From a virus: a stretch of DNA of 64,000 bases. A model generated the notes under the pieces. That model searched no databases and was not told the origin of the DNA. It saw only the letters and a program-made list of their open reading frames with translations. The first letter of the stretch is position 1. Every line of letters begins with the position of its first letter. The stretch spans positions 7,020-71,019 of IMG/VR virus record IMGVR_UViG_3300009104_000014. The stretch is one strand, 5' to 3'. Of the stretch, positions 1,967 through 62,890 are shown piece by piece. A program made the position numbers and the translations under genes.

Positions 1967-2797
1967 ATGGAAGAACAGAATGATTTGGAATTGCTAAGTG
2001 GATGGATAGATGAACTGGTAGATGCGTATGAAGATGGTATGGATAATGTGCGTTTGGCCTATGGATATTTGGTTCAACTAATGGGAGCATTACATGGCAT
2101 AGGCTTGCCTTTGGACCCTGTAGAGGGTATGTTCATTATCAAGCACAACAAAAGCGAACCCAATGTTCTACACGACTCGATAGCAGAAACACTAACGATG
2201 ACTCAAGTTAGGCGAGTCCACTTGCTAATTGATACGGCATACGAAATGATACGACAAGAGGGAACTTATCCTGAGTCATTCGTCATGCACTACTCCACTC
2301 GACTGTATGAGAATGCAGTTATACACGCACACACCGGACATTCGATACCGGCTGACGAGATGTTGATTAAGACTATGGTTGCTATAATCGAAGAAGGGCT
2401 ACCAAAGACCTACAGTAAACAGGTAGCATTTGATATTGCCTTTGAAACAAAGTTGGCCTGTTCGCAACTAACTCTACAGAACTTCGCAAAAGCAGGGGTA
2501 AGTGGCTTTATCTTAGATTCTCGCGGGTTCGTTGCTATTGATGAAGAACACATACCAAAGGAATGCGAGCAGTTCCTTGCCTTCTTGTCCCATCACTTAG
2601 ACGAGATGGGCGGTAGAGCGAGAGCAAAGGCAAAGGGCGAGGACTCGGAGAAGTTAATCGAAGAAGAGATTGCTAAAATCATGGATGAAGACGAAGGGGA
2701 AAGGTTCATCCCACCTTCTTACCGTAGGCATTTTGAGGTCGGAGAAGATATGGACCCCGATTCAGATGAGAATGACGACGAGGTAGTGAGATGGTAG
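1967..2797 (+). CDS. hypothetical protein with acidic C-terminus
   Basis: 276-aa ORF; no family recognised. Confidence 0.7.
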   Translation: MEEQNDLELLSGWIDELVDAYEDGMDNVRLAYGYLVQLMGALHGIGLPLDPVEGMFIIKHNKSEPNVLHDSIAETLTMTQVRRVHLLIDTAYEMIRQEGTYPESFVMHYSTRLYENAVIHAHTGHSIPADEMLIKTMVAIIEEGLPKTYSKQVAFDIAFETKLACSQLTLQNFAKAGVSGFILDSRGFVAIDEEHIPKECEQFLAFLSHHLDEMGGRARAKAKGEDSEKLIEEEIAKIMDEDEGERFIPPSYRRHFEVGEDMDPDSDENDDEVVRW

Positions 2798-3354
2798 ACC
2801 ACCACACAGTAAAATTGAGTATCGAATTGATACCAAGCAACTCCTATGGGAACAACCTAAGGGGCCTTCTCAGAGGTTGCACATGGGATAGGTTGCGAAA
2901 AGCAACATACGAAGAGGCAGACCACCAATGCGAGATTTGCGGTAGCAACGGATTAGCACAGGGTAGAAAGCACCGAGTAGAAGCCCACGAAGTGTGGTCA
3001 TACGACGACGAAAATAGGATTCAGACATTGGAACGACTACAGGCATTATGCCCGTTATGCCATCAAGCAAAGCACATAGGCAGAAGCCTATCCGTAGGGG
3101 CCGGAGCAAGGACCGTTAGGCATTTAGCAAAAGTGAACCGTCTGACGAAAGAGGTAGCAGAAGATTACATCAACCGTTCTTTGGAAGAGCATACTCTCCG
3201 TTCTCACGGAGATGCTTGGTTGCTAAACATAAGTCATTTACTGACTCACCCTGCATTAACAGATGCAGACATTAGAGATTTACCCTACAATGTGGATGGA
3301 GTGTTTATATCCCATCCAATATCGGGTGATAACGAACACACAACAGAGGAATGA
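2791..3354 (+). CDS. HNH endonuclease
   Basis: CEIC...EAHEVWSY...LQALCPLCHQAKH: Zn-binding HNH signature. Confidence 0.85.
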   Translation: MVDHHTVKLSIELIPSNSYGNNLRGLLRGCTWDRLRKATYEEADHQCEICGSNGLAQGRKHRVEAHEVWSYDDENRIQTLERLQALCPLCHQAKHIGRSLSVGAGARTVRHLAKVNRLTKEVAEDYINRSLEEHTLRSHGDAWLLNISHLLTHPALTDADIRDLPYNVDGVFISHPISGDNEHTTEE

Positions 3355-5391: not shown

Positions 5392-6120
5392 ATGCGACAC
5401 CCGTTGCTATTCGGTGGGAACTTCCTACTTACAACACCGGATTTGATAGAAGTTGTAGATTTCAAAGCATGGAGAAAGGTAAACAACCCAAGAGAGAATA
5501 GAAAAAGACGCAGATTCTCACCGTATCTAACACTTAGATGTGGGGAAACCTTGCTAAAATTGGTTGGTTATAGTGCAGTATGGGAGTTCTTAGATGCAAT
5601 CCAGCCTGATTTACCAAGAATACCAATCAATTCGGTTATGAAAGGATATGAGTTCTATGATATAGAAACCATGTCTTTCTTGGAAGAGGTTGCTTGGTTC
5701 TTGGTAGAGAGTGATGAAGCGTTTATTGGATTCAAGATAAACGATAATGGTTTAGCAAGAGCAGTCAAGAAACCACTTAGCAACATCCCGATAGCCAGCA
5801 AAGAATACACAGGAGCGTCAGAATTGACGCTTTTTGATGCCACAAGATATTATGTTGCTATCTTAGAAAGCAAATGCACCAGCAAATACTTTGTTTACAC
5901 CATAGGTTATGGTGTTAGACCCCTGAAAGGAAAGGTGTTTAGCAAGATAGATGAAGCGCAGATGTATGCTGTAAGAACCACCCATGAGATAGCAAGCACA
6001 GAGAATGTTATCGGCCACCAAATCCTGAGGTTCGGGATGTTTGATGAAGAGGTAGATTCATTGGAGAATGAGTTATTCTTTCAGTTATTGAACGAAACTG
6101 AAAACCAAATTACTACTTAG
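5392..6120 (+). CDS. hypothetical protein
   Basis: 242-aa ORF; TATA-like TGATATAT 29 nt upstream (leaderless). Confidence 0.7.
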   Translation: MRHPLLFGGNFLLTTPDLIEVVDFKAWRKVNNPRENRKRRRFSPYLTLRCGETLLKLVGYSAVWEFLDAIQPDLPRIPINSVMKGYEFYDIETMSFLEEVAWFLVESDEAFIGFKINDNGLARAVKKPLSNIPIASKEYTGASELTLFDATRYYVAILESKCTSKYFVYTIGYGVRPLKGKVFSKIDEAQMYAVRTTHEIASTENVIGHQILRFGMFDEEVDSLENELFFQLLNETENQITT

Positions 6121-6290
6121 CAGTAAAGCGGTTTGCTAATTCTTTCTATTCTCTATAGGACATTAAGGGAATATACTGTAGTATAACTCCCTGATATACC
6201 CCTTGAACAATAAAAAGAATAGAAAAAGTGTGATACTGCTCCGCAGTAATATGGTCTAAAATGAACAGAAACAATAGAAAGAATAAGTGG
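6072..6290. repeat. ~215-bp imperfect palindromic element, copy A (origin-like)
   Basis: ATTCTTT at 6075 and 6139, AAAGAAT at 6214 and 6278, CAGTA/TACTG pair, central TATACT-gt-AGTATA; homologous to 59695..59910. Confidence 0.75.
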
Positions 6291-6300
6291 GTTTATACGG
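6289..6300 (+). promoter_or_regulatory. TATA-box promoter of the helicase operon
   Basis: GGGTTTATACGG about 32 nt upstream of ATG 6324. Confidence 0.65.
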
Positions 6301-6323: not shown

Positions 6324-6689
6324 ATGGGTAGCGGAAGAGCAGGTCAAACAAAGAGATTACAACAAACCGTCTATAGGCTGATACAGGAAGAGGGGCCGGC
6401 TACGGCTGATTATTTAGCGCGTCGCTACAATGACCGCCCTTATCATGCTGGCAGACAGACTCGCGGTATGAATCACGGAACCAACGCAAGAAGGTTAGCG
6501 GCAGTTATGGCTACAAGTGTTCTATTCGAGCCGGTAGGTGTAGTGAATATACCAAAAGTGGGGGCGGTTGCTATGTGGGGAACTGTCCCTCTGAAAGAAG
6601 CGGCCGCTAAAGCAATTGCTTCTAAAAGGCCCATACACAAATACCCACTAATACTACGCGAAGCAATGAAGGAGATGATGATACAATGA
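6324..6689 (+). CDS. winged-helix protein (DUF3860-like paralog)
   Basis: 'LQQTVYRLIQEEGPATADYLARRY...TNARRLAAVMATSVLFEPVG'; clear paralog of 21..374. Confidence 0.65.
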   Translation: MGSGRAGQTKRLQQTVYRLIQEEGPATADYLARRYNDRPYHAGRQTRGMNHGTNARRLAAVMATSVLFEPVGVVNIPKVGAVAMWGTVPLKEAAAKAIASKRPIHKYPLILREAMKEMMIQ

Positions 6690-7420
6690 GAGAGAGTGCT
6701 AACGATGTGGATATTTATTGGGAGAAAGAAATAGAGGGCTTGATAACAAGAGTTGTTATCGTCTGCGCCCAAGAACCATGCCCCATCCCTACAATCCTAA
6801 CCGACAATATAGACAAAGACGGAGTAAGGGTTGCTACGGTCTTATCCAAATTAGGTCGAGTTATGCCCTTCTTTGATATTGATTCTGATTTTGGAACGGT
6901 GATTTACCAACACAACCAAACATTGGTTATCAACTTCCGCGACTTTCATTCGATAGCGGGGGGAAACCATTGGTTATTCGGTTATCCTATTGTTAGAGAA
7001 ACAGTAGAGTCAGTATTGAACCGTCTATCGGAGCAACCATCAATGCCTTCTGTAGTAATAGCAACATCTACTGTTTATTGTGCGGAGCCGAAGAAGTATC
7101 TCGTAAAGAGTGAAAGTGAATCAACTCATTTTAGCAAGCAATTCAATGAATTGGAAGAAGAGATACTTCCGATGTTCGCGTATGTGAGCGCGTGGTTAGC
7201 ACAACAGAGAGGGATTGGGGCTACTATTGTTTTCTTCCGAGCAACAATAGACCAAGTAATGACTCAACAGATGTTTGCCGATGGAGTAGGCTTATTCTCT
7301 ATGATAGAACTGCCTGTAGACATAGATAAGGCGCAAGATTCTTATGATGAATACGAATCCGAGTGGGGTGTAGGTGAAATGCTTGAGTCAGATTCAGGAG
7401 TTGGGGGAATGTTTACTTGA
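6686..7420 (+). CDS. hypothetical protein, possible PAC2 (proteasome assembly chaperone)-like fold
   Basis: Size and 'SAWLAQQRGIGATIVF' resemble the PAC2-family C-terminal motif; weak similarity recalled by eye. Confidence 0.35.
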   Translation: MRESANDVDIYWEKEIEGLITRVVIVCAQEPCPIPTILTDNIDKDGVRVATVLSKLGRVMPFFDIDSDFGTVIYQHNQTLVINFRDFHSIAGGNHWLFGYPIVRETVESVLNRLSEQPSMPSVVIATSTVYCAEPKKYLVKSESESTHFSKQFNELEEEILPMFAYVSAWLAQQRGIGATIVFFRATIDQVMTQQMFADGVGLFSMIELPVDIDKAQDSYDEYESEWGVGEMLESDSGVGGMFT

Positions 7421-8763
7421 TGGTTAATGATAGTGAGATGGATATATTCGATGAGTTGCAGTCTTTCTGTGATGCCAACCACTATGTAGCGGTTGATGAT
7501 AAATTACCAATCTTCATTTGTAGTGTGGGAGCGCACATATTCAATGCGATAAACAAATGTTCTCGTTGCGATTTCACAGTAGAGAACCCCGTTGATGGTT
7601 ATTTCTCAATCCCCAATTGTCCCTTGCGACATGATAATAACCCAATATACACACCTATGAGTAGACTTGCAGATACAAGAGTCCATATCCTCATGCGAGG
7701 AAAGAAAGGTTCAGGAAAGAATGTTCTAATTGACTTATTTTTAGCGGAAGGGACTGGCCTACTATGGAATCCCGAAGGATTCAACGGCGTTGGTTTTAGA
7801 ACCATGATAGGTGCTAACTCTATCACAGAAGCGGGATTATTCGGTAGTGTGAATGAAGATGGTTATGTTGCCGGAAGACCTGTAGCGAGAGAGTTATGCG
7901 GTGGGTTCCTTGGGTTTGAAGAGTTCTCATCCCTAACAGATGCTACAAAGAAAGACCACAGTATGGATATGAAGAACCAGTTGCTAACAAGTCTTGATAG
8001 CGGGAGAGTGAACAAGGGTATGAGGCATGGTTGGGTTAGATACAATACGCGCTATACCTGTTGGGCGGGAACTCAACCCGCAAGGTTTGAATTGGAGTCG
8101 GGTCTTGACCGTAGGTTCTTCATTATAGAGATTGAGATGAGTCCTACAATTGAATTGGAATACAAAATAGCACAAAATAAACAGGCTCGCATGACTCCAT
8201 CAGAAAGAGCGGAGTTAGCAACTAAGGCTATGGAAATGAGAGCGTGGTTCTACAAGCGCATGGAAGATGCTATACTAACCCCACCAACGAGTGTGTCTTT
8301 CACCCCTACTTTTGAGGAATGGGTTTTGCGAGATACCGTAAGGTCATTTGAGGCAGATTTGTTTAGAAGATTATCAATTGGATATGCTATGATGCAACCC
8401 GATTATGAGGGTGGGAAACCGTTGCTCGTTGATATTGATGACCGACTCTCACTTATCCTATCCCAATCATTAGCAATGAGAAGGACAGTTATGGATGCTG
8501 ATGTTGCTCTGATTAAGGCCATGTATTGGGGCCAAGAAATACCAAAGTCTACTATGCTAAAGGAGATTGCTAAGGTAATTACCAACGGTGATTATCAAAG
8601 TGCTAAGAGATGGGTAGAGGAAAACCTTGTGGGGGAGTCTTGGTATGAAGAATATACCCCGAAGGTAGTTGGTAAAAGAGGAAGAAGGGGGGTGGCTTGT
8701 CGTATAGGAGAGAAGCCGCCGGAACCCGACGAGTTCGCTACATGGGGTAATGGTAATGCGTAG
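7417..8763 (+). CDS. mcm: MCM-like replicative helicase (AAA+), N-terminally reduced
   Basis: Walker A GKKGSGKN, 'SITEAGLFGSV' (cf. MCM SSxAGLTA), Walker B 'GFEEFSS', arginine finger 'GLDRRF'. Confidence 0.75.
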   Translation: MMVNDSEMDIFDELQSFCDANHYVAVDDKLPIFICSVGAHIFNAINKCSRCDFTVENPVDGYFSIPNCPLRHDNNPIYTPMSRLADTRVHILMRGKKGSGKNVLIDLFLAEGTGLLWNPEGFNGVGFRTMIGANSITEAGLFGSVNEDGYVAGRPVARELCGGFLGFEEFSSLTDATKKDHSMDMKNQLLTSLDSGRVNKGMRHGWVRYNTRYTCWAGTQPARFELESGLDRRFFIIEIEMSPTIELEYKIAQNKQARMTPSERAELATKAMEMRAWFYKRMEDAILTPPTSVSFTPTFEEWVLRDTVRSFEADLFRRLSIGYAMMQPDYEGGKPLLVDIDDRLSLILSQSLAMRRTVMDADVALIKAMYWGQEIPKSTMLKEIAKVITNGDYQSAKRWVEENLVGESWYEEYTPKVVGKRGRRGVACRIGEKPPEPDEFATWGNGNA

Positions 8764-9007
8764 AAAAAGGGTTCACTTTATCCATTCTTGTTTAGAATAC
8801 TTGCTAAAAGCGGGACCGACTACTACCATAGAACTTATTGATAATGTTCGCAATAGTAGAGGTAAGAAGCACCATTATAGACCAAGTGTCGCTGAGTTGG
8901 GGCAGTTATTGAGAATTGATAAGAGGTTTGTAGTAGTAGGGACTACTACAGAATCCATTAGTCTATGGTCATTAGCAGAAGAGTTAGCAACAGGTGAAGA
9001 GGAATGA
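8750..9007 (+). CDS. winged-helix protein (DUF3860-like paralog)
   Basis: 'LEYLLKAGPTTTIELIDNV...PSVAELGQLLRIDKRFVVVG'. Confidence 0.6.
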   Translation: MVMRRKRVHFIHSCLEYLLKAGPTTTIELIDNVRNSRGKKHHYRPSVAELGQLLRIDKRFVVVGTTTESISLWSLAEELATGEEE

Positions 9008-9051
9008 CTGATATATCACTTAAAGGAAATATGCTTTGAAGAGGACTGAAC

Positions 9052-9153
9052 TTGAGTGGAAGAATAGCGAGGAAATGCGAAAACAAAGATTGCGAAAACC
9101 ATACTTTTGACTTATGGATAGGGTTATGTGAAAGTTGTAGAGAAGAGGAATAG
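9052..9153 (+). CDS. 33-aa Zn-finger microprotein (not in ORF track)
   Basis: MSGRIARKCENKDCENHTFDLWIGLCESCREEE; GAGGA upstream. Confidence 0.5.
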   Translation: MSGRIARKCENKDCENHTFDLWIGLCESCREEE

Positions 9154-9156
9154 ATT

Positions 9157-9777
9157 ATGAAATCAAAGTGGTTAATAGAACAAAGATTGGCTTATGAAGA
9201 GGACCCTGAAACAATCAGGGTGCTAAAGTGGGTGTTAGAAAGCCCCGAATGCCCTTTATGCAACCACAACCAAAGAAAGGACATAGAGTATATCGTTGCT
9301 AAAGGCACACAGTCCCCCTCTTACTTAGAAGAAAAGTATGGGTGGGCGAATGGTATTATCACCGAACACATGAATGAACACATAGAATACGACCCCGAAG
9401 AGGCCGGCCGCATAGAAAAGTTGCGTGATGAAAGCATTACCACCTTAGAAATGGCGGAAGATGTTTTCTCTCGTATTCAATCATGGTTAGATGAGTGGGA
9501 ACAAAAGAAAGACCAAGAAGGGATTTCAAGAGAATGGATTGGCGAAGCAACGAAATTGGTAGCGGCGGCAAATACCAACCTAAAGTTGATTGGAACATTG
9601 AAGAAAGAGATAGGGGTTGATTCGCAGTTGCTATTAGCCCACCAACAAATCAACGGTGTTATGGGTGTGCTGGTAGATGTTCTGCGTGATGAACCTGCGT
9701 TGCTAAATCAAATGGAGTTGCGATTAGCGGCACTAAAAGCCCCCACTATAGATGTAGAGTTCGAGGTAGTTGAATGA
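9157..9777 (+). CDS. Zn-HTH plus coiled-coil protein (possible terminase small subunit or regulator)
   Basis: CPLCNH..R..IE...HTH...H..EH followed by long helices. Confidence 0.45.
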   Translation: MKSKWLIEQRLAYEEDPETIRVLKWVLESPECPLCNHNQRKDIEYIVAKGTQSPSYLEEKYGWANGIITEHMNEHIEYDPEEAGRIEKLRDESITTLEMAEDVFSRIQSWLDEWEQKKDQEGISREWIGEATKLVAAANTNLKLIGTLKKEIGVDSQLLLAHQQINGVMGVLVDVLRDEPALLNQMELRLAALKAPTIDVEFEVVE

Positions 9778-9911
9778 ATGGTCTTGATAGTGAAACCGAA
9801 CAATGGTGCGAAGAGCGTTTTGCGCGACTGGCTCTATATCGGACTGTCGGGTCAGCGTTGAACATCGTTCTCTCTATGGTTGTAATTGCTAAGTTGTTTG
9901 GGTGGATATGA
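9774..9911 (+). CDS. 45-aa membrane microprotein (not in ORF track)
   Basis: ATGA overlaps at both ends; hydrophobic C-terminus ALNIVLSMVVIAKLFGWI. Confidence 0.55.
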   Translation: MNGLDSETEQWCEERFARLALYRTVGSALNIVLSMVVIAKLFGWI

Positions 9912-10198
9912 TGAGTAGAGAGGCCGGTAAGAAAATTAAGTGGCGACCACATTTTAACCAATTGATTGCTCGCCCCATTCCTAAGTCAGAGTTCCCTAAG
10001 ATAGTGGAAAAGATGATAGAAGATGGTTTGGTCTGTGTCCTACATTTGGGGGGCTACCAATGGTATAGTGGTAGATACCGAGTGTCTGCGTCGGCCGTCA
10101 GAGAGATATGGTGTCTTTCTCAATCCCAATGGAGCAGGTTCATGGGATGGGTTTATAGCCATGACCCGTTCTCATCAATTGATGACGAAGACATATAG
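9908..10198 (+). CDS. hypothetical protein
   Basis: Trp-rich ORF with ATGA-coupled start. Confidence 0.6.
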   Translation: MMSREAGKKIKWRPHFNQLIARPIPKSEFPKIVEKMIEDGLVCVLHLGGYQWYSGRYRVSASAVREIWCLSQSQWSRFMGWVYSHDPFSSIDDEDI

Positions 10199-10436
10199 AC
10201 GAAAAGCAGTAGCGGAAGCAGTCAAACAATGGGCGAGAAGCGAATGGTTCACCGCAGGTGAGTTGTTAGACTTAGCGTCACAGTTGAATACCCAACCAAG
10301 GGGTGGTTTAACAGTATTCTCGGTGTCGAGAATACTAACTGGGTTTGAGGCTAAAGGCGTGGTAGAATCAAGAAAAAAGTTGGGTAAAAAAATATACAGG
10401 AGAATAGAAAATGGGCGTGGTTATTTACACGAATAG
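10182..10436 (+). CDS. winged-helix DNA-binding protein (start re-assigned to 10182)
   Basis: 'WFTAGELLDLA...LTVFSVSRILTGFEAKGVVESRKKLGKKIYRR' classic wHTH. Confidence 0.65.
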   Translation: MTKTYRRKAVAEAVKQWARSEWFTAGELLDLASQLNTQPRGGLTVFSVSRILTGFEAKGVVESRKKLGKKIYRRIENGRGYLHE

Positions 10437-11055
10437 GCCCGATAGGTATACAGACAACGATACTGTCTATATGGAAGGTAGGCTTAGGTATCCCCCCACA
10501 GGGCAGGGGGTCACATACGCTCTAAGTGGCACTATGTCCTTGAAAGAGGCGATTGATTTAGCACCCTCTGTTGGATATAGATTGGTAATTACACCCAAAA
10601 ATAAACCAACATTTGGTAGCGAAGGGAATGTTATTGTTGATTGGGAAGAAAGGAAGGAGAACTTCAACTCAATTATTTCGGGTATCTACAGATTCCCACA
10701 AAGAGATATGTTGCTAAAGCGATTACAAAAGGTCCCTATACCATATCTTTTGGCGAGTTGTTCTAACATCAGAGATTACCGGCTTTGGAACTTGATTGCT
10801 AAAGCAAACATGGTTTTGCCTGATGAGTATGTAAGAGCATTGATAGCGTTTGGTGTTAAACCACACCCTAAGGTTGCTAAATCAAAGGGGAAGAAAACAA
10901 AGCCAACTTCTCATCCTTTATTTAGAGAATCGGACCAGTATATTGATTTCATAATACGCAATTCAGAAGAGGTTGCTAATGAGTTGAGGCAAGTTGCGCC
11001 CGATTTGATACCTAAAGGGGTAAAGAAAACAATACAAACGGGGGATTCTATATGA
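10411..11055 (+). CDS. hypothetical protein
   Basis: 214-aa basic ORF in the replication region. Confidence 0.7.
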   Translation: MGVVIYTNRPDRYTDNDTVYMEGRLRYPPTGQGVTYALSGTMSLKEAIDLAPSVGYRLVITPKNKPTFGSEGNVIVDWEERKENFNSIISGIYRFPQRDMLLKRLQKVPIPYLLASCSNIRDYRLWNLIAKANMVLPDEYVRALIAFGVKPHPKVAKSKGKKTKPTSHPLFRESDQYIDFIIRNSEEVANELRQVAPDLIPKGVKKTIQTGDSI

Positions 11056-11225
11056 CTGCAAGTGCGGGGGCTTGTTGGATTGCGTTTTGGATAATTGCTA
11101 TATCGTATTTTTTCATCCCTCTCGGCGTTGGTTTACTCCGTATTTGGCTTAGAGGTATTGTTGGTAGTGGGGAAGCCCCTACTACAGAAGAGTGGACTTG
11201 GGTATCTTCATTCAACAACCAATGA
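11052..11225 (+). CDS. 57-aa membrane microprotein (not in ORF track)
   Basis: ATGA overlap; hydrophobic stretch CWIAFWIIAISYFFIPLGVGLL. Confidence 0.5.
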   Translation: MTASAGACWIAFWIIAISYFFIPLGVGLLRIWLRGIVGSGEAPTTEEWTWVSSFNNQ

Positions 11226-11253
11226 TATACCCGTATTTGTCTGTATTGAATAG

Positions 11254-11655
11254 ATGAGTGCGAACAATAGACGGTTGCGTCGGCTCGTCGTGGATATACT
11301 GTTCACAGAAGGGCCATTAACGAGGACTCAAATAGCAGAAAAACTTGCTAATTTACGCTCGCTTAGAGAGGTCCCAAGCGACAACAGTCTTTCGAGTGTG
11401 CTTGCTAAAAATGTTCAGTTGGAATCAGTAGGCTTTGCTAAAGTAGAGAAACTAAATGGGAACAAAACAAAACACATGGTGTTTGATATTAAGCGTGATT
11501 TGATTAGCAACCATGAAGAGATAGAACAAACGAGGCCAATGTCTTGTATGACTGCTCAAGAGAGAACCTTAGCATCAAGGTGTCCTCAATGCGGAAGACA
11601 TAGAATACTTCCAAAGGATAAGAATGTCTGTCTTCATTGTGTTAAGGGTTTATAG
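11254..11655 (+). CDS. DUF3860-like winged-helix protein with C-terminal Zn finger
   Basis: 'LVVDILFTEGPLTRTQIAEKL...PSDNSLSSVLAKNVQLESVGFAKV' plus CPQC...CLHC. Confidence 0.65.
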   Translation: MSANNRRLRRLVVDILFTEGPLTRTQIAEKLANLRSLREVPSDNSLSSVLAKNVQLESVGFAKVEKLNGNKTKHMVFDIKRDLISNHEEIEQTRPMSCMTAQERTLASRCPQCGRHRILPKDKNVCLHCVKGL

Positions 11656-11657
11656 GG
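11646..11657 (+). promoter_or_regulatory. TATA-box promoter (leaderless)
   Basis: GGGTTTATAGGG, TTTATA 30 nt upstream of ATG 11679. Confidence 0.65.
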
Positions 11658-11678
11658 AGTATACTCTCCCTTTGAAGT

Positions 11679-12293
11679 ATGACTACACCAGTAATTATTG
11701 GAATAACAGGAAAGATGCGAAGCGGTAAATCCACTCTTGCTAATGCTTTAGCATACAATAACAACACTAATGTTCTATCATTTGCACAATATGTTAGAAG
11801 AGAGGTTGCTGAAGCCTTCTTCGGTCATAGTATAGACCCGACCGCAGAACTCATGGCCCAAGAAGCCGCCGATAAAGGAACAATACGACCTATCCTACAA
11901 GCATTTGGTCATGGAAAAAGAATGCTAATTGACGAGAATTATTGGGTAGAGCAACTTGCTAAAGATGTTAGAAAGAACTTCTCTGATAAGAGGGTGATAT
12001 TTATTGATGATGTGCGCTATCCTAATGAAGTAGAGTATATCATCAAAAATGGTGGGTTTATCGTTAGGCTCGTATGCGACGCGCAAACCCTGATTCATCG
12101 TGGTGCTTCGGAGTCTGCCTTGGAGCATCCGAGTGAGAATGCGCTCGACTCTGATAATTTAACAATAGCAGAAAGTATGCTACCACACCACACATTAGCA
12201 TTAGATAGTGGCATGAGTGACCAAGAGGCCCTACAAAGGTGGACTACTGATTGGTTGCTAAATAACCAAGTAGAACTCAAGAAGGTTGCCTGA
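11679..12293 (+). CDS. deoxynucleoside monophosphate kinase (T4 gp1-like)
   Basis: IIGITGKMRSGKST P-loop, SFA..VR, 'IDDVRYPNE', 'HPSE' motifs. Confidence 0.85.
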   Translation: MTTPVIIGITGKMRSGKSTLANALAYNNNTNVLSFAQYVRREVAEAFFGHSIDPTAELMAQEAADKGTIRPILQAFGHGKRMLIDENYWVEQLAKDVRKNFSDKRVIFIDDVRYPNEVEYIIKNGGFIVRLVCDAQTLIHRGASESALEHPSENALDSDNLTIAESMLPHHTLALDSGMSDQEALQRWTTDWLLNNQVELKKVA

Positions 12294-13247
12294 ATGTTGA
12301 AGACAGTATGGTCAGAAAAACACCGGCCTTCTTATCTTAGTGATATAGCAGGGCAAGATGCAGTTATAGTAGAACTGCAATCAGTAGTTGAAGGCCAAGT
12401 ATCGCCCCAACATTACATTTTCTATAGTCCACAAGCCGGAACAGGAAAGACCACAGTTGCGAGAGCATTTGCTAAAGAGTTAGGGTGGCCTATACATGAG
12501 TTCAATGCTTCCACAAAGAAAATGAGAGGCATTGAGTTCATTGAAGAAGAAATCATCCCTTTGTGTAATGTGGGAGCGAAGACAATCTATCTATTAGACG
12601 AAGCAGACCAATTAACAACCGCCGCACAATCGGCATTAAAGGGGGTAATAGAGAATGCAGATGGTATATTCATTTTAACCTGCAACGATATTAGCAAGTT
12701 ATCACCTTGGATACAATCGAGATGTTCGATAAAGAGGTTCCAACCCATCCCCATAGATTGGATGGTTGCGACATTAAAGAAGATAGCAACCGACGAAGGT
12801 CTACCTGCCGATGATAAGCATTCTTTGTGTATCAATAGGATTGCTAAAGCACATGAAGGAGATTTACGGAGTGCTATCAATGCACTACAGGCCATGTCTT
12901 GTCTTCATGTAGATGATAGGGATAGATTCACTTTAGCAATGGGCGACTCTCAATTAGATTACGAATTGTTTTTGAGAATGTGTTTTCGAGATAAGGATAT
13001 TGAGTCAGCAGTTAGGTTGCTAAATCCTTACGATACAAGAAAGGTTATCCGAGAGGTATTCTCATTTGCTATTTCTTCCAACGCTACTCCTGAATCCAAG
13101 ATGAAGGTTGTAGAAGCCGCCATCATTTGTGAGCGTGATTGTATTAACGGCGTTCAAGATGAGATAATTAAGTGGGCCTTCTGCACGATGCTTTGTAGGG
13201 GGTTTATAGGGAGATGGGATTTAGGACAGATTACAACAGATAGGTGA
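12294..13247 (+). CDS. rfcS: replication factor C (clamp loader) small subunit
   Basis: WSEKHRP, GTGKTT, EFNAS, LDEADQLT..AQSAL, 'IQSRC', GDLRSAINALQ. Confidence 0.92.
   Translation: MLKTVWSEKHRPSYLSDIAGQDAVIVELQSVVEGQVSPQHYIFYSPQAGTGKTTVARAFAKELGWPIHEFNASTKKMRGIEFIEEEIIPLCNVGAKTIYLLDEADQLTTAAQSALKGVIENADGIFILTCNDISKLSPWIQSRCSIKRFQPIPIDWMVATLKKIATDEGLPADDKHSLCINRIAKAHEGDLRSAINALQAMSCLHVDDRDRFTLAMGDSQLDYELFLRMCFRDKDIESAVRLLNPYDTRKVIREVFSFAISSNATPESKMKVVEAAIICERDCINGVQDEIIKWAFCTMLCRGFIGRWDLGQITTDR
13199..13212 (+). promoter_or_regulatory. TATA-box promoter with leader and AGGTGA RBS for the SSB/ATPase operon
   Basis: GGGGTTTATAGGG at 13199; AGGTGAG just upstream of ATG 13253. Confidence 0.6.
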
Positions 13248-13252
13248 GATAT

Positions 13253-14476
13253 ATGTTAGATGGAATGATTGAGAAGATTGCGGCCAATATAGGTTGCACA
13301 AGTGAAGAACTGATGAAAGCGCATGAGGCGGTCAAGGTTGACCACCATGCTAATTTCCTCGCGGCGGGGAAGAGTGACGAGGAAGCAAACACTTTGTGTT
13401 TGAGAATGGCCTCTACTACAATAAGGAAGAAATCAATGGCCCTGTCGAGAAGTGGACTTGAAGAATACGAAGGAGTATTCCTGAGTGTGCCGAGAGCAAA
13501 GGATTTTGCTGAGATGGCTTATAACAAGACTGCGGGGATATTGAACGGTTTGGGTCCTGAGGGTAGAGAGAACTTGGTTGCTAACGGCCAAGTAATGCTC
13601 TACACCCCTACAGGCGATGGTGGGTATACGCGCCTTGCGAACCCAAGCCTCGTCGCCAAGTTGCCTTTTGAAGCAGGGCAGACTGCTCAATCTACGGTTG
13701 CTAATTTACCCAAGCACACCATGTCTTTGAATGACGGAACTCTTTTCTCATGCGTATGGAACAATACCATGCCTACATTCCCTAATGGGAATGCTAATTA
13801 CAAATATGGTCAACCAAGACCGCTCTCAGAACCTGAGAGAGTATCAACATTCTTGGGAAGGAAGAGGGGGTCAGATAGCGCACCTTCTCTAATGAAGGTA
13901 TATGCGAGTGGTAAGTTGAGTAGGGCTTCCTTCCCAACACTAACTACAGGATTTATCGCAGGTAAAGCAAACGCTAACAACGACAGGCTCTACCTAAAGG
14001 CAGACCTTAGCACATGGAATGATGACCATGAAGTAGCAACCATGTTTGGTAGCCCACCGCATGAATGGAATCTATTGGACTTAGGAGTCACCCCTCTTGA
14101 GGGTCTTGATTCGATAGAAGAGTATGTTGGTTCTCTCGGTGAAAAGGAGAAGTGGGATGCTTTGTGTGCAGTTCGCTTAGAGGTTCTACACATTGACCCA
14201 CAGGACAACGGGGGCTTTGTGGTGACTTTGGGTGATTTGGATTACACCAGTCTATCCATGCCTATTGAACTTTGGATACCAAAGTCACAGGAGAAATACA
14301 TTGATTTCGGAGTAGGTTCAACAGTCATGGCTATCGGCCAAGCATGGATGGGTAGAGATGGCGACGGTAGAATGAGCATTACGGGTTGGTGTGTTATGGA
14401 TAACTTGAAGCCGGCCGATGTTCCTTTGGAAGAAGCAACCGATGAGGCAACCGATGAAGTAGAGGGGTGGGAGTAG
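13253..14476 (+). CDS. probable RPA/SSB-like single-stranded DNA-binding protein
   Basis: N-terminal helical domain, C-terminal OB-fold-like strands ('FGVGSTVMAIGQAW'), acidic tail, position in replication module. Confidence 0.55.
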   Translation: MLDGMIEKIAANIGCTSEELMKAHEAVKVDHHANFLAAGKSDEEANTLCLRMASTTIRKKSMALSRSGLEEYEGVFLSVPRAKDFAEMAYNKTAGILNGLGPEGRENLVANGQVMLYTPTGDGGYTRLANPSLVAKLPFEAGQTAQSTVANLPKHTMSLNDGTLFSCVWNNTMPTFPNGNANYKYGQPRPLSEPERVSTFLGRKRGSDSAPSLMKVYASGKLSRASFPTLTTGFIAGKANANNDRLYLKADLSTWNDDHEVATMFGSPPHEWNLLDLGVTPLEGLDSIEEYVGSLGEKEKWDALCAVRLEVLHIDPQDNGGFVVTLGDLDYTSLSMPIELWIPKSQEKYIDFGVGSTVMAIGQAWMGRDGDGRMSITGWCVMDNLKPADVPLEEATDEATDEVEGWE

Positions 14477-15447
14477 TGTCTTGGGGACAAGCCGTTCCTT
14501 CCTCTACGGAGAAGCCCATTGAAGAGAGGACCGTCTACAATAAGGATTACTATACTGGTCTACTGACTGAATCAAAGGTCAACCAATTCCCAGTTAGAAT
14601 AGCGGCAGTTGGTAAAGAAAACACCGCTAAAACAGGATTGCTAATTGATATGGCCCTCAACAACACCGATAAGGATATTATCATCTTGGATATTGATAAT
14701 AGCGCGTCACAGACGGTTATGGTGAATTATCCCAATAACAACCGAATAAAAGTAATCCCCATCTATGATGCGGCTGATAGTTCCATCTTCAATGAAGACA
14801 ACTCTACTAATTGGGTTGCTTTGGTTGATAAAATGAGTTGGTTCATGCGTATCTTAGGCGAACAGAGTAGAAAGGGAGAAGTGGGAGCAGTAATCATAGA
14901 CGGTTGCTCTACTTTCCTTAAGTGGTGTGAGTTCAGTATGACCGATGTTCTCCTTAGAAGGGGAGTAATAGAGCAAGAGGGGGATGCTTTTAATCAGAAG
15001 GAATGGCGAACTCGAAATCAACTCTTCCGTGATGTTATCAATAGAGCGCATCAACTTCAAGTTCCCTTCGTTGGTTATACCTTCCATCTGAAAGATGTAA
15101 AGGAATATATGGATATTGGCAACGGCCAAAAGGGATTAACTAAGGTTGGTGAAACCCCTGAGTGGGAAAATGGAACAAAGAGATTGTTTTCGCAACAGGT
15201 ATGGCTCACCCGATATAGTAAGAAAGGAGATTTGGCGGCAGGGGTCAAGAAGGATGATAGCCTAAATAGCAACGAGTGGGTTGTTAGAGCAACCATTAGT
15301 GAAATGAAAGGTCTTCATCAAGAATACTTGGGGACAACACACGATGTGCTTAGTGTAAATGATGGAGAGGTCACATGGTATGGTCTTCCTTTCTTGCATT
15401 GGAATGGCAAGAACGAGAAAGAGGCTACCAATAATGGCGAGGCGTAA
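14476..15447 (+). CDS. RecA/RadA-superfamily ATPase (Sak4/AAA_24-like recombinase)
   Basis: Variant Walker A GKENTAKT, 'IIILDID', Walker B 'VIIDG'; follows the SSB gene; GTG start overlaps upstream TAG. Confidence 0.7.
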   Translation: MSWGQAVPSSTEKPIEERTVYNKDYYTGLLTESKVNQFPVRIAAVGKENTAKTGLLIDMALNNTDKDIIILDIDNSASQTVMVNYPNNNRIKVIPIYDAADSSIFNEDNSTNWVALVDKMSWFMRILGEQSRKGEVGAVIIDGCSTFLKWCEFSMTDVLLRRGVIEQEGDAFNQKEWRTRNQLFRDVINRAHQLQVPFVGYTFHLKDVKEYMDIGNGQKGLTKVGETPEWENGTKRLFSQQVWLTRYSKKGDLAAGVKKDDSLNSNEWVVRATISEMKGLHQEYLGTTHDVLSVNDGEVTWYGLPFLHWNGKNEKEATNNGEA

Positions 15448-15745
15448 TTATTTTGTTAAACGATGGATAATTACTGCCCTTTCTACAGTAGATACACCAG
15501 TCACCGCGAGAGCGGTTGTTGATATAATCAAACAACACCGCGACCCCAAAATAAATAGGAACTCTCGCCGTTCTGCTAACATATCAGCCGTAAAGATTGG
15601 GGCTATAATGTCGAGAATGGAAGAGGTAAAGGTGTTCCGAGCATCAAGCAACTCAGAAAGAAACCTGTATCAGATTAGACCGCAGTATAGGGGTTTATAT
15701 GGGGACAGGGAGAGAGGTATATATGAGCGGAAGAAAAAACAATGA
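15434..15745 (+). CDS. winged-helix protein (DUF3860-like paralog; start re-assigned to 15434)
   Basis: 'WIITALSTVDTPVTARAVVDII...ISAVKIGAIMSRMEEVKV...NLYQI'. Confidence 0.55.
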   Translation: MARRNYFVKRWIITALSTVDTPVTARAVVDIIKQHRDPKINRNSRRSANISAVKIGAIMSRMEEVKVFRASSNSERNLYQIRPQYRGLYGDRERGIYERKKKQ

Positions 15746-16562
15746 TGTTGCGTTCAACAATACTGCTCTTCAAAATGCTCTAAGGGCCGCGAGAAGATTC
15801 ACATTTGTTGGTGGCGCAAAGCAACCCCAATGTTATGCTTGCATCATTAAAGTCGGACCGACGGTTGCTAAAATTGTAAGCGGAGTGAAAGACGGGATAA
15901 CGAGTGTGCATGATATAGCAATCACTTTGGAAGAACCGGCAACCGAATGCGAACTTTGCATCCCTAATTTGAATGATGTTATAGGGGCGTTGAAAACACA
16001 TGGGGATATTGTATATCTATCACACAAACCAAATGGTAATTTGCTAATTCATTCAAATAAAAGACAAACGACATTTATGTCTTCTCCTTTAGCAAAGGCT
16101 TATCCCTCTTCTCGCAACTCAATAATCAAACAACATCAAGATGCAGTAGAGATAGCAAGTCGCTTCGATAAAGACATGGCTATTTACACCGATACCAAGG
16201 GGAAAAAACATAGCCCTGTATGTATTATCAACTTAAAGCGAGATATATTGGTTGATGCTTTGTCGGTTGCTAATTTGAACGGACAGAACGAATCAACCTG
16301 TAGTATGGAACCAATGGAAGATTCTACCTTCATTAAGACTGGTAATACTTTGAAAGGTCAGACTTCTACTCTTATTCATCCCCACCAAATACCAACGGAA
16401 CCCTTCAAGTTCGGCGGTGGTTTAGAAAACCTACTTCCTGTCTTCGGAGAAGAAATTAAATTACACATTTACGACATGAGAGATTTTGGGGGAAAATATG
16501 TCTTGGCGTTTAGCGACGGCCATGCTTTGGTTTTACAGGTAGGTGTTCCCCATGAGGTTTAG
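15723..16562 (+). CDS. probable DNA sliding clamp (divergent PCNA/beta-clamp fold)
   Basis: ~280 aa with two alpha/beta repeats, upstream of polB in a genome with RFC; promoter GGGTTTATATGG 29 nt upstream. Confidence 0.55.
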   Translation: MSGRKNNDVAFNNTALQNALRAARRFTFVGGAKQPQCYACIIKVGPTVAKIVSGVKDGITSVHDIAITLEEPATECELCIPNLNDVIGALKTHGDIVYLSHKPNGNLLIHSNKRQTTFMSSPLAKAYPSSRNSIIKQHQDAVEIASRFDKDMAIYTDTKGKKHSPVCIINLKRDILVDALSVANLNGQNESTCSMEPMEDSTFIKTGNTLKGQTSTLIHPHQIPTEPFKFGGGLENLLPVFGEEIKLHIYDMRDFGGKYVLAFSDGHALVLQVGVPHEV

Positions 16563-16863
16563 ATGTAGTGTTTGTGATAAGGTAATGCAATACCATATAG
16601 AGTGTAGCGTTGGTTCATCTAACCATCATATTCAATGCGAGTGCGGAACTACCTTTGTAGTAAACATAGCCGCTCACAAAGAAGACAATAGAGATAGGGG
16701 GTATAGAGATGCAGATACTCTTCGTTCACTATACGAGGAACAGGGAAAAACAATGCAACAACTTGCTTGGAAATACGCAGTATCACCAATGACTATCAAT
16801 CTATGGCTTAAGAGGCATGGAATAGCAACGAGAAGAAGAGGAAGGGTCAAGCGTGATAATTGA
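16552..16863 (+). CDS. Zn-ribbon plus HTH protein
   Basis: CSVC...CECG then 'LRSLYEEQGKTMQQLAWKYAVSPMTINLWLKRHGIATR'. Confidence 0.75.
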   Translation: MRFRCSVCDKVMQYHIECSVGSSNHHIQCECGTTFVVNIAAHKEDNRDRGYRDADTLRSLYEEQGKTMQQLAWKYAVSPMTINLWLKRHGIATRRRGRVKRDN

Positions 16864-19090: not shown

Positions 19091-19110
19091 ACAAGTGTGG
19101 TGGTAGGGTT

Positions 19111-20774: not shown

Positions 20775-20776
20775 CC

Positions 20777-21784: not shown

Positions 21785-21806
21785 AGAAAGCGAAGAATGT
21801 AGAATA

Positions 21807-21914: not shown

Positions 21915-21950
21915 CAACCATTGATTAAGGCGTAATAAAGTCGCAGTAGT

Positions 21951-41422: not shown

Positions 41423-52419
<10,997 letters not shown>

Positions 52420-59367: not shown

Positions 59368-59646
59368 TCACGCAATCATTTGGTAAAGAAGAAACAAAAT
59401 CATACCCATACCACCAGTCATTTGTGCTACTCGCTTAGTAATAAAGCGGTCGAGGCTATATACTGGCCCTTCCAGTATCTTCTTTTGGTTTTCTTTTACA
59501 TCTTCTAATGAAACCTCTACTTCGTCTAATCTTTTTCCGTGTTGTATGTGTTCATTCTGTTGTTCCCTAAGCACAGTCTTAATATCCGACACATCATCCC
59601 TCACAAGGTCTAATCGAGCCATGACCGCGAGCGTTGCGTCATCCAT
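59368..59646 (-). CDS. small coiled-coil protein with C-terminal TM
   Basis: Heptad repeats plus hydrophobic end; start re-assigned to 59646. Confidence 0.6.
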   Translation of the reverse strand: MDDATLAVMARLDLVRDDVSDIKTVLREQQNEHIQHGKRLDEVEVSLEDVKENQKKILEGPVYSLDRFITKRVAQMTGGMGMILFLLYQMIA

Positions 59647-59694
59647 GCCCGAAAAGAATATAGAATGATTTATTACCATTTACATACATTGTCT

Positions 59695-59910
59695 GTTTAT
59701 TCTTTTTGTGCCTGAAAATAATGAAAACAAATTACTTGCTTTCAGTATAGCGATTTCTAAATTGTTTCTATTCTCTATAGGGTATTAGGAGATATATACT
59801 CCCCCCTTATCCTAAAATGTCCTATAGAGTATTGAAAGAATAAGAAAAGTGTTATACTGCGAACTTGTTATTTGTTTGAGATTATTTCTAATACCAAAAA
59901 GAATGAAAGT
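59695..59910. repeat. ~215-bp imperfect palindromic element, copy B, between divergent late operons
   Basis: ATTCTTT 59699, ATTGTTT 59761, AAAGAAT 59835 and 59898; 17/17 direct match 59765-59781 to 6143-6159; 22/24 inverted match 59816-59839 to 6141-6164. Confidence 0.8.
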
Positions 59911-59939
59911 TGATAAGGCATCAGTTTCTACGAATGGTT

Positions 59940-61178: not shown

Positions 61179-61401
61179 TTCATGGACTACAGAAGACTCT
61201 TGCGTAATAATCGGAGAATCATCTGACGATGAAGATTCTCTCATTCTTTGTATACTTGATAGTGATGCACACATGATGACCGCTATTCTCGATAGGCAAG
61301 AAATAGAAAGTCTTGTTGAGTATATGGCTGAATGGGTGGGTTTCCCCTTGATTCTATCAAATACAACAGTAGGGGGCTATAATGACTGGCCTGATGAGTA
61401 G
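61171..61401 (+). CDS. small acidic protein
   Basis: 76-aa ORF overlapping both neighbours. Confidence 0.55.
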   Translation: MNDSWTTEDSCVIIGESSDDEDSLILCILDSDAHMMTAILDRQEIESLVEYMAEWVGFPLILSNTTVGGYNDWPDE

Positions 61402-62890
61402 TTTCAATCTACAGAGAAGTAGATATGACCATCAGCATTTTTACGAATGGCTTGGTTATACTTGGGGTAAACATATTGGTGAGTGGTTTGATTTATTCAA
61501 TGATAGAAAGGGTGCGGCCGTTCATCGTGTTTTATTGATTGCTCCGCGTGACCACAGTAAATCAACTACACTAAGAGTTAAGGCTTTACATTCCCTTCTT
61601 TTCGAGAAGTGGCGTAATAAGCCGTTTACTACATGGCTTTTCTCTGCCAGTAAAGAATTGGCCGCTAATAGACTTGAAGAGATTAGAGAAGATTTGAGAA
61701 GGCATCCCGATTTATCTAAGTTGTTAGATGAAAAGCGCGGTGGTAAGTGGGAGTTGCGTTTAACTAATGGTTCTTGGATTAAAGCATCATCTGTAGGTTC
61801 TGCTATTCGTGGAGAACACCCTGCGCGTATCATTTTAGACGATGTGTTAGATGATTCAGCCGATATGTCCGATGATGTAGTTAGGAATTGGTTTCGTAAG
61901 AAATTAACTCCAATGTTGAGTCCTGATACATCTATATTCGTAGTAGGAACACCTTTGGCTCTAACTGACCTATACCACACAGAAATGCTAAACAATGAGG
62001 CTTGGAAGTCTTGGAAGCAGGGTAGCATTCTTAATTATGACGAATGGGCTAAAGACCCTGAGAATATAGAACCTATTTGTTTATGGCCTGAATATAGAAG
62101 TGTAGACTTCTTACTTGAACAGAGAGTTGCTATGGGTGAATTAGCGTTTTCTCAAGAATACCTATGTAGGGTTGTTGATGATGACTCTGCGGTATATCCC
62201 TCTCGACTAACAAGACAACATCTTAACATGGATGCTACCTTAGAACATGAAAAATTGCATGGCGGCAGATATGTGATTGGTTTTGACCCTTCTCATGGTA
62301 TTGGTAAAGACTATAGCGTTATGGTAATAGTTCGTCAAGATAATGAGGGTTTCTTACACATAGTAGATATTTGGCGACATAATGACTTTGAACCTACTAA
62401 ACAAGTAGAAGAAATCATTAGGTTATGCACACTTTACAGAAACCCTATCTTTGCGGCTGAGTCTGCTGGCTTCCAACGGTTATATCATACTCTCATAAGA
62501 AATAAAGGAGCCAATGTTGATTATAGAGCAAGCCCTGTTCAGAATAGAGTTCTCAAACAATCCCTACTAATGAGGCTTCGGTCTTGGTTTGAACAGGGTA
62601 AAATCGTTGTCCCCTATGGTAATGACCATACGAGGAAGGTAATGAATGAGATGTTAGAGGAATTAGAAACCCATGCTTGGGATAATGGCATCATTGTAGA
62701 CAAAGGTAAGCATAATGATATTGTTATGGCTTTGGCTCACGCCGTAGACCAGTTCCAAAGTAAGGGGGGCAATGATGCTCCTATGGTAGGCAACTCTGCA
62801 TCAGTTGGTGGTTGGAGTCTATCTAAGGATAAACCTACAACTACCGTTCATAGAGATGCGAACTCTCGTTATGTGAGGTTCAGACTTTAG
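61382..62890 (+). CDS. terL: terminase large subunit
   Basis: 'APRDHSKST', 'IRGEHP..IILDD', 'VVGTP', 'FSQEYLC', nuclease 'GFDPS' and 'HNDIVMALA'. Confidence 0.95.
   Translation: MTGLMSSFNLQRSRYDHQHFYEWLGYTWGKHIGEWFDLFNDRKGAAVHRVLLIAPRDHSKSTTLRVKALHSLLFEKWRNKPFTTWLFSASKELAANRLEEIREDLRRHPDLSKLLDEKRGGKWELRLTNGSWIKASSVGSAIRGEHPARIILDDVLDDSADMSDDVVRNWFRKKLTPMLSPDTSIFVVGTPLALTDLYHTEMLNNEAWKSWKQGSILNYDEWAKDPENIEPICLWPEYRSVDFLLEQRVAMGELAFSQEYLCRVVDDDSAVYPSRLTRQHLNMDATLEHEKLHGGRYVIGFDPSHGIGKDYSVMVIVRQDNEGFLHIVDIWRHNDFEPTKQVEEIIRLCTLYRNPIFAAESAGFQRLYHTLIRNKGANVDYRASPVQNRVLKQSLLMRLRSWFEQGKIVVPYGNDHTRKVMNEMLEELETHAWDNGIIVDKGKHNDIVMALAHAVDQFQSKGGNDAPMVGNSASVGGWSLSKDKPTTTVHRDANSRYVRFRL

Follow-up and report, generated by a model that had tools for sequence, protein, structure and literature searches.

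The question raised by the locus described here is what two long, related and nearly palindromic stretches of non-coding DNA are doing in the genome of a virus. They lie in a 64,000-nt window (the whole stretch of DNA analysed) that covers bases 7020-71019 of the 71,019-bp IMG/VR record IMGVR_UViG_3300009104_000014, rated complete by CheckV and called G000 below. Its gene content, discussed further on, places the virus among the magroviruses, which infect marine group II archaea, are abundant and uncultured and, to our knowledge, are known only as gene lists. Element A precedes an operon that includes a putative MCM-like helicase gene, and element B separates two divergent blocks of genes. An earlier reading of the window (the original prediction) took them for twin replication origins with symmetric initiator sites, or else for large regulatory or packaging platforms. 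Our sequence comparisons show A and B to be putative multi-site DNA platforms that are under selection and joined to the predicted promoters of gene blocks, one copy always preceding the helicase operon. We describe them as a virus-specific family of ‘homologous regions’, i.e. dyad-symmetric arrays of predicted sites, 220-240 bp long, upstream of block promoters.

The pair is not chance AT-rich DNA. A and B are homologous in the same orientation, with a local alignment score of 83 vs. 19.6 ± 2.5 for 300 dinucleotide shuffles (z=25.6), and A aligned to the reverse complement of B scores 70 (z=19.9). Each copy is also an imperfect inverted repeat, aligning with its own reverse complement at z=5.7 (A) and z=9.8 (B). 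A repeat search recovers both relations, namely: a direct repeat of 6102-6170 and 59724-59792 (77%) and an inverted one of 6103-6185 and 59795-59877 (72% complementary). The boxes described originally prove exact. ATTCTTT starts at 6075 and 6139 in copy A, where AAAGAAT follows at 6214 and 6278 (spacings 64/75/64). The corresponding starts in copy B are 59699 (ATTCTTT), 59761 (ATTGTTT), and 59835 and 59898 (both AAAGAAT), with spacings of 62/74/63. The CAGTA...TACTG pairs are likewise confirmed, 113 bp apart in A (6121/6234) and 112 bp apart in B (59743/59855). The parts of the two elements and the TATA-like sequences at their edges are as follows.

6062..6299, no strand: element A, an imperfect dyad of ~238 bp, 68% A+T (window 57%), given as its nhmmer envelope; it lies between the + strand open reading frame (ORF) 5392..6120 and the + strand gene 6324..6689
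6075..6081, + strand: outer-left ATTCTTT box of A, inside the last codons of ORF 5392..6120
6120..6125, + strand: left GCAGTA site of A, directly after the TAG stop at 6118-6120
6139..6145, + strand: inner-left ATTCTTT box of A, followed by CTATTCTCTATAGG
6167..6191, no strand: central small palindrome of A, GGGAATATACTGTAGTATAACTCCC (GGGAATATAC..GTATAACTCCC); the sequence and length of the centre vary in relatives
6214..6220, - strand: inner-right box of A, AAAGAAT on the + strand
6234..6248, no strand: right GCAGT site of A, present in both orientations as TACTGC-TCC-GCAGTA
6278..6284, - strand: outer-right box of A, AAAGAAT on the + strand
6292..6298, + strand: TATA-like TTTATAC, 25 nt before the ATG at 6324, the putative promoter of the operon for the winged helix-turn-helix, PAC2-like and MCM-like proteins
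59691..59918, no strand: element B, an imperfect dyad of ~228 bp, 71% A+T, at the junction where the structural block (- strand) and the nuclease/terminase block (+ strand) diverge
59699..59705, + strand: outer-left ATTCTTT box of B
59743..59747, + strand: left CAGTA site of B
59761..59767, + strand: inner-left box of B, ATTGTTT, followed by CTATTCTCTATAGG
59788..59806, no strand: centre of B, the palindrome GGAGATATATACTCC (59788-59802) plus a C run
59835..59841, - strand: inner-right box of B
59855..59859, - strand: right site of B, TACTG on the + strand
59898..59904, - strand: outer-right box of B
59910..59917, + strand: TATA-like TTGATAAG, 16 nt before the ATG at 59934 and 22 nt before the ATG at 59940
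59669..59676, - strand: TATA-like GTAATAAA, 22 nt before a conserved ATGGAT start at 59646-59644

Are A and B an oddity of one genome, or members of a family? A profile built from these two copies alone finds homologues in 20 related IMG/VR loci, and an iterated profile, trained on its own matches, finds them in 56 of 69. For nine of the 13 misses the upstream DNA is shorter than 1,210 nt, and the remaining four (L069-L072) are the most distant of the Metallophos loci; two of the four were searched and contain no inverted repeat, and one that was read by eye has a 90-bp spacer only. The searches reached down to 60% helicase identity, one of them keeping the best 80 of 198 loci, and a second set of loci used below partly overlaps the first. 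Placement is constant across relatives. A-type copies precede the helicase operon in every one of the 36 loci of the first set whose upstream DNA reaches 1,559 nt, and in 68 of the 70 second-set loci (the two misses being L166 and L167, the former of which has the boxes on inspection by eye), whereas B-type copies lie at the divergent junction by the portal/terminase genes in 20 of the 24 loci that have upstream DNA. Some genomes have an extra C-type copy among small genes, 7-8 kb from B. When a sequence-only model (R1) is run over ten complete genomes, it counts two copies each in G000-G004, three each in G005-G007, two in G008 and one in G009. Thus, complete relatives carry one, two or three copies and are not generally ‘twin’, and the sole copy of G009 is the helicase-linked one.

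In our own genome, the profile search finds no third copy at E values up to 20, save a 28-nt fragment at 63391-63418. An exact extended site, AGGCTTGCAGT, is located at 63404-63414 (- strand), within a 246-bp divergent intergenic region (63211-63456) that has TATA-like palindromes of its own between G and C runs. It may be what is left of the third (C-type) element seen in other genomes, or a minimal version related to it. A one-mismatch copy of the same extended site is found at 63909-63919, inside the 119-bp repeat that ends the record.

The anatomy of the family was read from 48 distinct elements. The heptamer ATTCTTT/AAAGAAT is present at fixed positions in 46 of them, with 123 occurrences; in our own genome it occurs 35 times vs. 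17.8 expected, 7 of these being in the two elements. Relative to the dyad centre, exact boxes fall at -100(>), -70(<), -40 to -25(>), +30 to +40(<), +70(>) and +100(<), i.e. six boxes of alternating orientation at a pitch of ~30-35 bp, mirrored about a centre of variable length. Only four per element had been described originally because the two middle ones are degenerate in this window. GCAGT/ACTGC sites are found at ±50-60 in almost every element, with AGGCTYGCAGTA as the extended form. The two sites are direct in most A-type relatives, inverted here and in B-type copies, and inverted the opposite way in six elements; their position is fixed and their orientation free. The spacing of the arms is nearly free of insertions and deletions, while the centre varies in sequence and by tens of bases in length. 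In addition, the motif by the inner box differs by clade and is the same in all copies of a genome, being CTATAGG in this clade and TTCAATAG in a large clade at 60-65%. Element B ranks first in its genome both for AT-richness (200-bp windows) and for dyad score, the three elements of G005 are its three top dyads, and in G000 and G007 the elements are among the top dyads and the most AT-rich windows.

Symmetry on this scale might reflect a structured RNA or a hairpin signal in single-stranded DNA, and single sequences do fold better than their shuffles (z of -3.1 for A and -6.7 for B). Folding is not what the family conserves. RNAalifold returns 0 consensus pairs for 39 members, the arm pairs are only ~67% Watson-Crick, and the mismatches are mostly transversions with no excess of G:T on either strand (GT 190, AC 229, other 901; 48 elements). 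Rfam gives no match, save a chance one of 17.8 bits vs. a gathering score of 200, and flipping the orientation of GCAGT would break pairing. With no consensus pairs, no wobble bias and no Rfam match, the symmetry is one of binding sites rather than of base pairing, and we consider a folded signal highly improbable.

Nowhere else in the non-coding DNA of the genome is conservation as strong as in the elements. G000 and G001 are 93.2% identical in element A, vs. 65-78% at the four-fold sites of four flanking genes, and A and B are 68-78% identical to their counterparts in G002 and G003, where four-fold sites are at 26-50%. The exception is B compared with G001, which at 88.0% vs. 89.1% at the four-fold sites of the neighbouring gene is uninformative. 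These comparisons show the signature of purifying selection over the whole element. A further indication comes from the first 49 nt of copy A, which overlap ORF 5392..6120 as originally noted. In nearly all relatives, the outer-left box of A-type copies lies within the C-terminal codons of the upstream gene, where it is read as Asn-Ser-Phe (NSF) in most of them and as Leu-Phe-Phe-Gln (LFFQ) here. The same box is thus kept in different reading frames, which means that the constraint is on the DNA and, as had been suggested, goes beyond coding.

The age of the copies can be judged from their relationships. Copy A of G000 is 68-92% identical to copy A of G001-G003 and only 59% identical to its own B. 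Since orthologous copies are closer than copies within a genome, the duplication is old and the copies are not being homogenised. This bears on whether they are miniature inverted-repeat transposable elements or some other selfish repeat, for which a palindromic build, a length of ~220 bp and several copies per genome would be fitting. Such a reading, the least probable of those considered here, is already contradicted by synteny as judged from the loci compared, in which the elements occupy the same sites (36/36, 68/70 and 20/24) in relatives down to 60% protein identity. The closeness of orthologues and the strong purifying selection also speak against it. Furthermore, the 47 matches of a pattern scan of prokaryote genomes are about as many as we estimate for chance, and none of them is a real element or has neighbouring viral genes, so that mimicry of a host origin found no support there. 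One archaeal metagenome-assembled genome reached by the scan has cdc6 packed against its upstream gene, with no AT-rich intergenic region and no boxes; its taxon is not given, so it is silent on the host.

What, then, do the elements adjoin? They stand at the heads of the three gene blocks of the genome: a + strand block from ~59934 across the ends of the map to 6120, a + strand block of replication genes (6324-22670), and a - strand block of structural genes from ~59646 down to 22664. A TATA-like octamer starts 33-27 nt before the first ATG at 49/70 A right edges, 14/18 B right edges and 8/15 B left edges, as compared with 56/524 other ORF starts in the same loci; it should be noted that the pattern was written after the data had been seen and that flanks were anchored on the first ATG of the first outward ORF. 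The criterion was an octamer ~26 nt upstream of the transcription start, with the start codon taken as proxy. The pattern required an A/T run, and the TTTATAC of our own copy A was not scored by it but identified by reading. Octamer and ATG are mostly 21-23 nt apart, which is what is expected of archaeal promoters of leaderless or nearly leaderless mRNAs. In many A-type flanks the ATG is preceded, at 5-14 nt, by a purine tract resembling GGAGGTGAT, so any exact start site is tentative. By this comparison, the elements are shown to abut TATA-like, putative promoters of the major gene blocks. A scan for bacterial-type promoters and terminators found nothing in the element, although such a scan is not relevant to archaea.

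The edges of B also bear on where its neighbouring genes begin. The TTG at 59910 that opens the mechanically called ORF is probably part of the TATA-like box and not a start, the likely start being the ATG at 59934 or 59940. The leftward gene likely starts with the ATGGAT at 59646, 11 codons inside ORF 59368..59679, rather than at 59679. Of 15 B-type left flanks, 10 open with ATGGAT, and in the closest relative GTGATAAA stands equally far from it.

Taken together, purifying selection, synteny and TATA-like boxes abutting outward-facing operons support the part of the original prediction that spoke of a large regulatory platform. They raise the possibility that transcriptional control is all that the elements do, i.e. 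that they are multi-site operator or enhancer arrays that switch the three gene blocks with no part in replication, bound by the winged-helix protein encoded after copy A or by a host regulator. Lambda OL/OR and the wrapped complexes of archaeal Lrp-type proteins are the comparison for multi-site operators. The TATA-like octamers are found on exactly the sides that have outward genes, the elements head the blocks, a winged-helix gene of DNA-binding type comes first after the A-type copy in most relatives, and a regular box pitch of ~32 bp suits cooperative regulators that wrap DNA. On the other hand, the left arm of A- and C-type copies faces no outward gene and yet keeps its boxes. A leftward ORF of at least 60 aa is present at only 7 of 92 elements, with a TATA-like box in 0 of those 7, and A-type left flanks have no outward gene. 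Moreover, G009 has several gene blocks and one element. We hold purely transcriptional arrays to be a serious possibility, well below an even chance in themselves, and nearly as likely as origins.

A different role in transcription is suggested by the polarity of the elements, which is invariant, the left arm being T-rich and the right arm A-rich on the + strand. They might be boundary cassettes whose T-rich inward arms stop incoming transcription and whose edges restart it, and might also serve as hot spots of module exchange, for which the promoter-stem-loop cassettes of T4-type phages are a parallel. Their location at block boundaries agrees with this, as do the runs of 5-6 T that follow GCAGTAnnnCG in many A-type left arms, just past the upstream stop codon. 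But B-type copies have T runs as well, though divergent flanks should send no transcription into them, the T runs at that place in our own copy A do not exceed TTT, and boxes and GCAGT sites at fixed positions exceed what a terminator needs. We regard boundary cassettes as unlikely.

The reading to which we lean, at a little less than an even chance, is that the elements are lytic origins that load the adjacent MCM-like helicase and are coupled to the flanking promoters. In such a mechanism, a conserved factor would bind the six ATTCTTT boxes, alternating in orientation at a pitch of ~32 bp; it may come from the virus (the N-terminal domain of the MCM-like helicase, or the winged-helix protein) or from the host. 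The GCAGT sites would be bound by a second factor, and both would wrap or bend the AT-rich DNA symmetrically about the length-tolerant centre. Wrapping would open the duplex, so that two helicase rings could be loaded head to head. Each element would then be a lytic replication origin coupled to its flanking promoters, in the manner of oriL/oriS of herpes simplex virus (HSV), the homologous regions (hr) of baculoviruses, and the origins of T4 and SPP1.

Four points favour this: mirrored boxes beside one-way genes, the rank of the elements in AT-richness and dyad score, the length-tolerant centre and the link to the helicase operon. The full mirrored set is kept at A- and C-type copies, where the flanking genes run in one direction, and this points to a symmetric process. 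An AT-rich stretch flanked by inverted sites is present, the elements having 68-71% A+T with mirrored boxes, and multiple homologous imperfect palindromes occur in non-coding DNA at 1-3 copies in the ten complete genomes.

Several observations weigh against origins. Location at the heads of transcription blocks suits promoters at least as well, and the copies are all confined to a single arc of 16-20 kb in a 70-kb genome. GC skew had been proposed as an origin marker and was rejected as such: its cumulative minimum is at B in G000 and G005, but in G009 it is at a divergent gene switch that has no element, so skew tracks gene orientation, and there is no change of skew at A. No Orc1/Cdc6-like or other recognisable initiator was found among the 45 ORFs (26 + 19, from the window and the first 7 kb) scanned against Pfam. 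The dyad alignment of ~11 A-type relatives extends only ±40-50 nt, because their GCAGT sites are direct and not inverted. Finally, the winged-helix family has a mean identity of 26% while the box is constant across clades, and in one subgroup the gene is missing from its place while the elements there keep their boxes; displaced and divergent in this way, the winged-helix protein is, on the sequences compared, not an obvious binder of the boxes, which tells equally against its role in a purely transcriptional array. The ‘twin origins with symmetric initiator sites’ first proposed fit the dyad kept at one-way genes, the link to the MCM-like operon, the AT-richness and the dyad rank, whereas the skew minimum is explained by gene orientation and no Orc1/Cdc6-type initiator was found in the ORFs scanned.

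Two further uses of a regular array of sites were considered, namely the positioning of chromatin (phasing of host histones or nucleoid proteins) and pac sites for the terminase. The original prediction likened a spacing of ~63 bp to the footprint of an archaeal histone tetramer; the pitch of the boxes is in fact 30-35 bp, which is near the ~30 bp of an archaeal histone dimer, and B is 1.5 kb from the terminase gene (61382..62890) in the block on its + side. However, the terminase is distant from the A- and C-type copies, it is the helicase-linked copy that is universal, and the contig ends of two near-identical genomes differ, so there is no fixed end at an element. We consider both uses very unlikely, and the packaging role first suggested for the elements is without support.

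The ends of the record deserve comment in this respect. They repeat 119 bp, window positions 63882-64000 (genome 70901-71019) being the same as genome 1-119, and a direct end repeat of exactly 119 bp is also present in the related record G007. The contig ends of G000 fall between B and A, while those of the 95%-identical G001 fall elsewhere on the map. Repeats of equal length together with differing contig ends justify the use of a circular map, and we infer that the 119-bp ‘terminal repeat’ is the assembly overlap of a circular or circularly permuted map and not a physical end.

The genes downstream of A were examined with respect to the helicase operon that the original prediction placed there.

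6324..6689, + strand: winged-helix gene (121 aa), the first gene after A in most relatives
6686..7420, + strand: PAC2-like gene (244 aa), the fold being tentative
7417..8763, + strand: gene of an MCM-like ATPase of the AAA+ class (448 aa), which has a Cys/His cluster at its N-terminal end

Copy A is thus at the putative promoter of an operon in which a winged-helix gene comes first and a PAC2-like gene second, and only then the MCM-like ATPase; the label ‘MCM operon’ is acceptable as ‘MCM-like helicase operon’. By sequence alone, profiles from Pfam, PHROGs, NCBIfam and PDB give nothing usable for the three proteins. The 121-aa product has an AlphaFold2 model with a mean predicted local distance difference test (pLDDT) score of 88.9 and an H-H-H-hairpin topology, and the model is confidently that of a winged helix. 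Its Foldseek matches are weak and to winged helices only (2od5 at E 0.011, TFE-alpha, FoxO, PadR and the Orc1 winged helix). The closest structure both by profile search (E 0.18) and by Foldseek is 2od5, a structural-genomics entry labelled ‘putative nucleic acid binding protein’; it comes from an uncultured marine organism and may be a relative from a similar virus. A link between the type of winged helix and the variant of the inner box was also considered and was rejected, since L012 and L014 pair a clade-I-like winged helix with clade-III-like inner boxes.

The model of the 244-aa product is of intermediate quality (pLDDT 66.4). Foldseek matches it to PbaA, PbaB and PAC2 at E values of 1e-7 to 1e-6 and TM scores of 0.5-0.6, and we tentatively assign it a fold like that of PAC2 and proteasome assembly chaperones. 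The gene lies between element and helicase gene in 16/16 loci tested, and the homologues (L013-L044 and L099-L172) are 244-300 aa long. It would be unusual for the replicative helicase of a virus to have a chaperone-like partner. The 448-aa product has invariant GxKGSGK, FEEFSS and DRRFF motifs. It has no Pfam (including MCM) or PDB match by sequence, but hhalign aligns it with three archaeal MCMs over 148 columns (probability 92.7%, E 4.4e-7), pairing GAKGSGKS with GDPGVAKS, FEEF with IDEF and RRF with SRFD. Its neighbours in the ESM Atlas are unnamed viral clusters, one of them with 10% RNA_helicase, and one relative has a weak ORC-CDC6-like match (E 0.08) that is below any cut-off. We find ‘MCM-like helicase’ an acceptable name for the predicted protein.

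These neighbours allow a bolder form of the origin reading, which we put forward as speculative and rather improbable. Magroviruses may start replication without Orc1/Cdc6, from self-contained origins whose six-box array, at a pitch of 32 bp, would wrap the DNA and on which the PAC2-like chaperone would assemble a head-to-head pair of MCM-like rings over the length-tolerant centre, with leaderless promoters firing from the same complex. If true, archaeal viruses would have a kind of origin and of helicase loading that is new, and would have it in one of the most abundant groups of surface-ocean viruses.

The remaining genes are, as far as predicted proteins indicate, those of a tailed archaeal virus. 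They encode a family-B polymerase, whose best named relatives are in haloarchaeal tailed viruses at ~23% identity, as well as an RFC-like clamp loader, a deoxynucleoside monophosphate kinase, a portal protein, a terminase, an Mre11-like phosphoesterase and an XPF/Hef-like nuclease. This agrees with the portion of the magrovirus description of Philosof et al. 2017 (PMC5434244) that we consulted, and the assignment is made from gene content. The block between B and A also encodes a MoxR-like AAA_5 ATPase (577 aa; L174, genome 933-2666), DUF7192 and DUF3846 proteins and an HNH endonuclease, and in the structural block one protein resembles staphylococcal nuclease and another has an LDL-receptor class A repeat; in addition to that of L174, the coordinates listed for proteins of these two blocks are window 2791-3354 and 56260-57398. 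Two - strand ORFs of the window, 41423-49294 and 49330-52419 (2,623 and 1,029 aa), are full of repeats with a 9-nt period of the GGN CCN type, read as collagen-like Gly-X-Y on the coding strand, which lift the local G+C to 50-56% and create spurious dyad and repeat signals. Giant - strand ORFs at 22664-29653 and 29650-33228 (2,329 and 1,192 aa) are located at the convergent junction of the gene blocks.

How do these elements compare with known systems? Repeated palindromic regions that act as origins, enhancers or both are, as a general kind, well known from herpesviruses, baculoviruses and some phages. HSV oriL/oriS and the baculovirus hr elements are multi-copy imperfect palindromes with an AT-rich centre and mirrored factor boxes near promoters, all of which is shared by A and B, and hr elements double as enhancers and origins. 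The differences are in host domain, in replication proteins and in the boxes: ATTCTTT and GCAGT are unrelated to theirs, and six boxes alternate here at ~32 bp. Archaeal origins built of origin recognition boxes (ORB and mini-ORB), bound by Orc1/Cdc6, also have inverted repeats round an AT-rich stretch, adjoin a replication gene and occur several times per genome, whereas no Orc1/Cdc6 was found in the ORFs scanned here and the neighbour is an MCM-like helicase, not an initiator. Among tailed viruses, SPP1 has two distant homologous origins (oriL and oriR) with repeated boxes and an AT-rich region, and T4 origins coincide with promoters. The hosts and machinery of both are bacterial, one SPP1 origin lies inside the initiator gene, and neither is known to have a 220-bp dyad. 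Lambda OL/OR and archaeal Lrp-type regions resemble A and B in being homologous multi-site operators, cooperative or wrapping, with the regulator gene adjoining, but they are not known to have an overall dyad of ~220 bp, while here the full mirrored set is kept even with a one-sided promoter.

A term search of three magrovirus papers (PMC5434244, PMC11706807 and PMC10160649) returned no passages on origins, palindromes, inverted repeats or promoters. A literature search that combined Poseidoniales, virus and replication origin found no paper, and the sections consulted of a paper on the halovirus BJ1 describe no comparable element. The box grammar, and its occurrence in an archaeal tailed virus, are thus new as far as the literature was searched.

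The elements are the first defined cis-acting DNA signals for magroviruses, and they mark the heads of gene blocks and adjoin the helicase operon. The family profile provides a sequence handle by which magrovirus contigs can be recognised and oriented. Furthermore, A and B offer substrates of 220 bp on which recombinant viral proteins can be assayed for binding, unwinding and promoter function, for which no cultured host is needed. If the elements are origins, they would show how replication is begun in a virus that has an archaeal-type replisome and in which no Orc1/Cdc6 was found.

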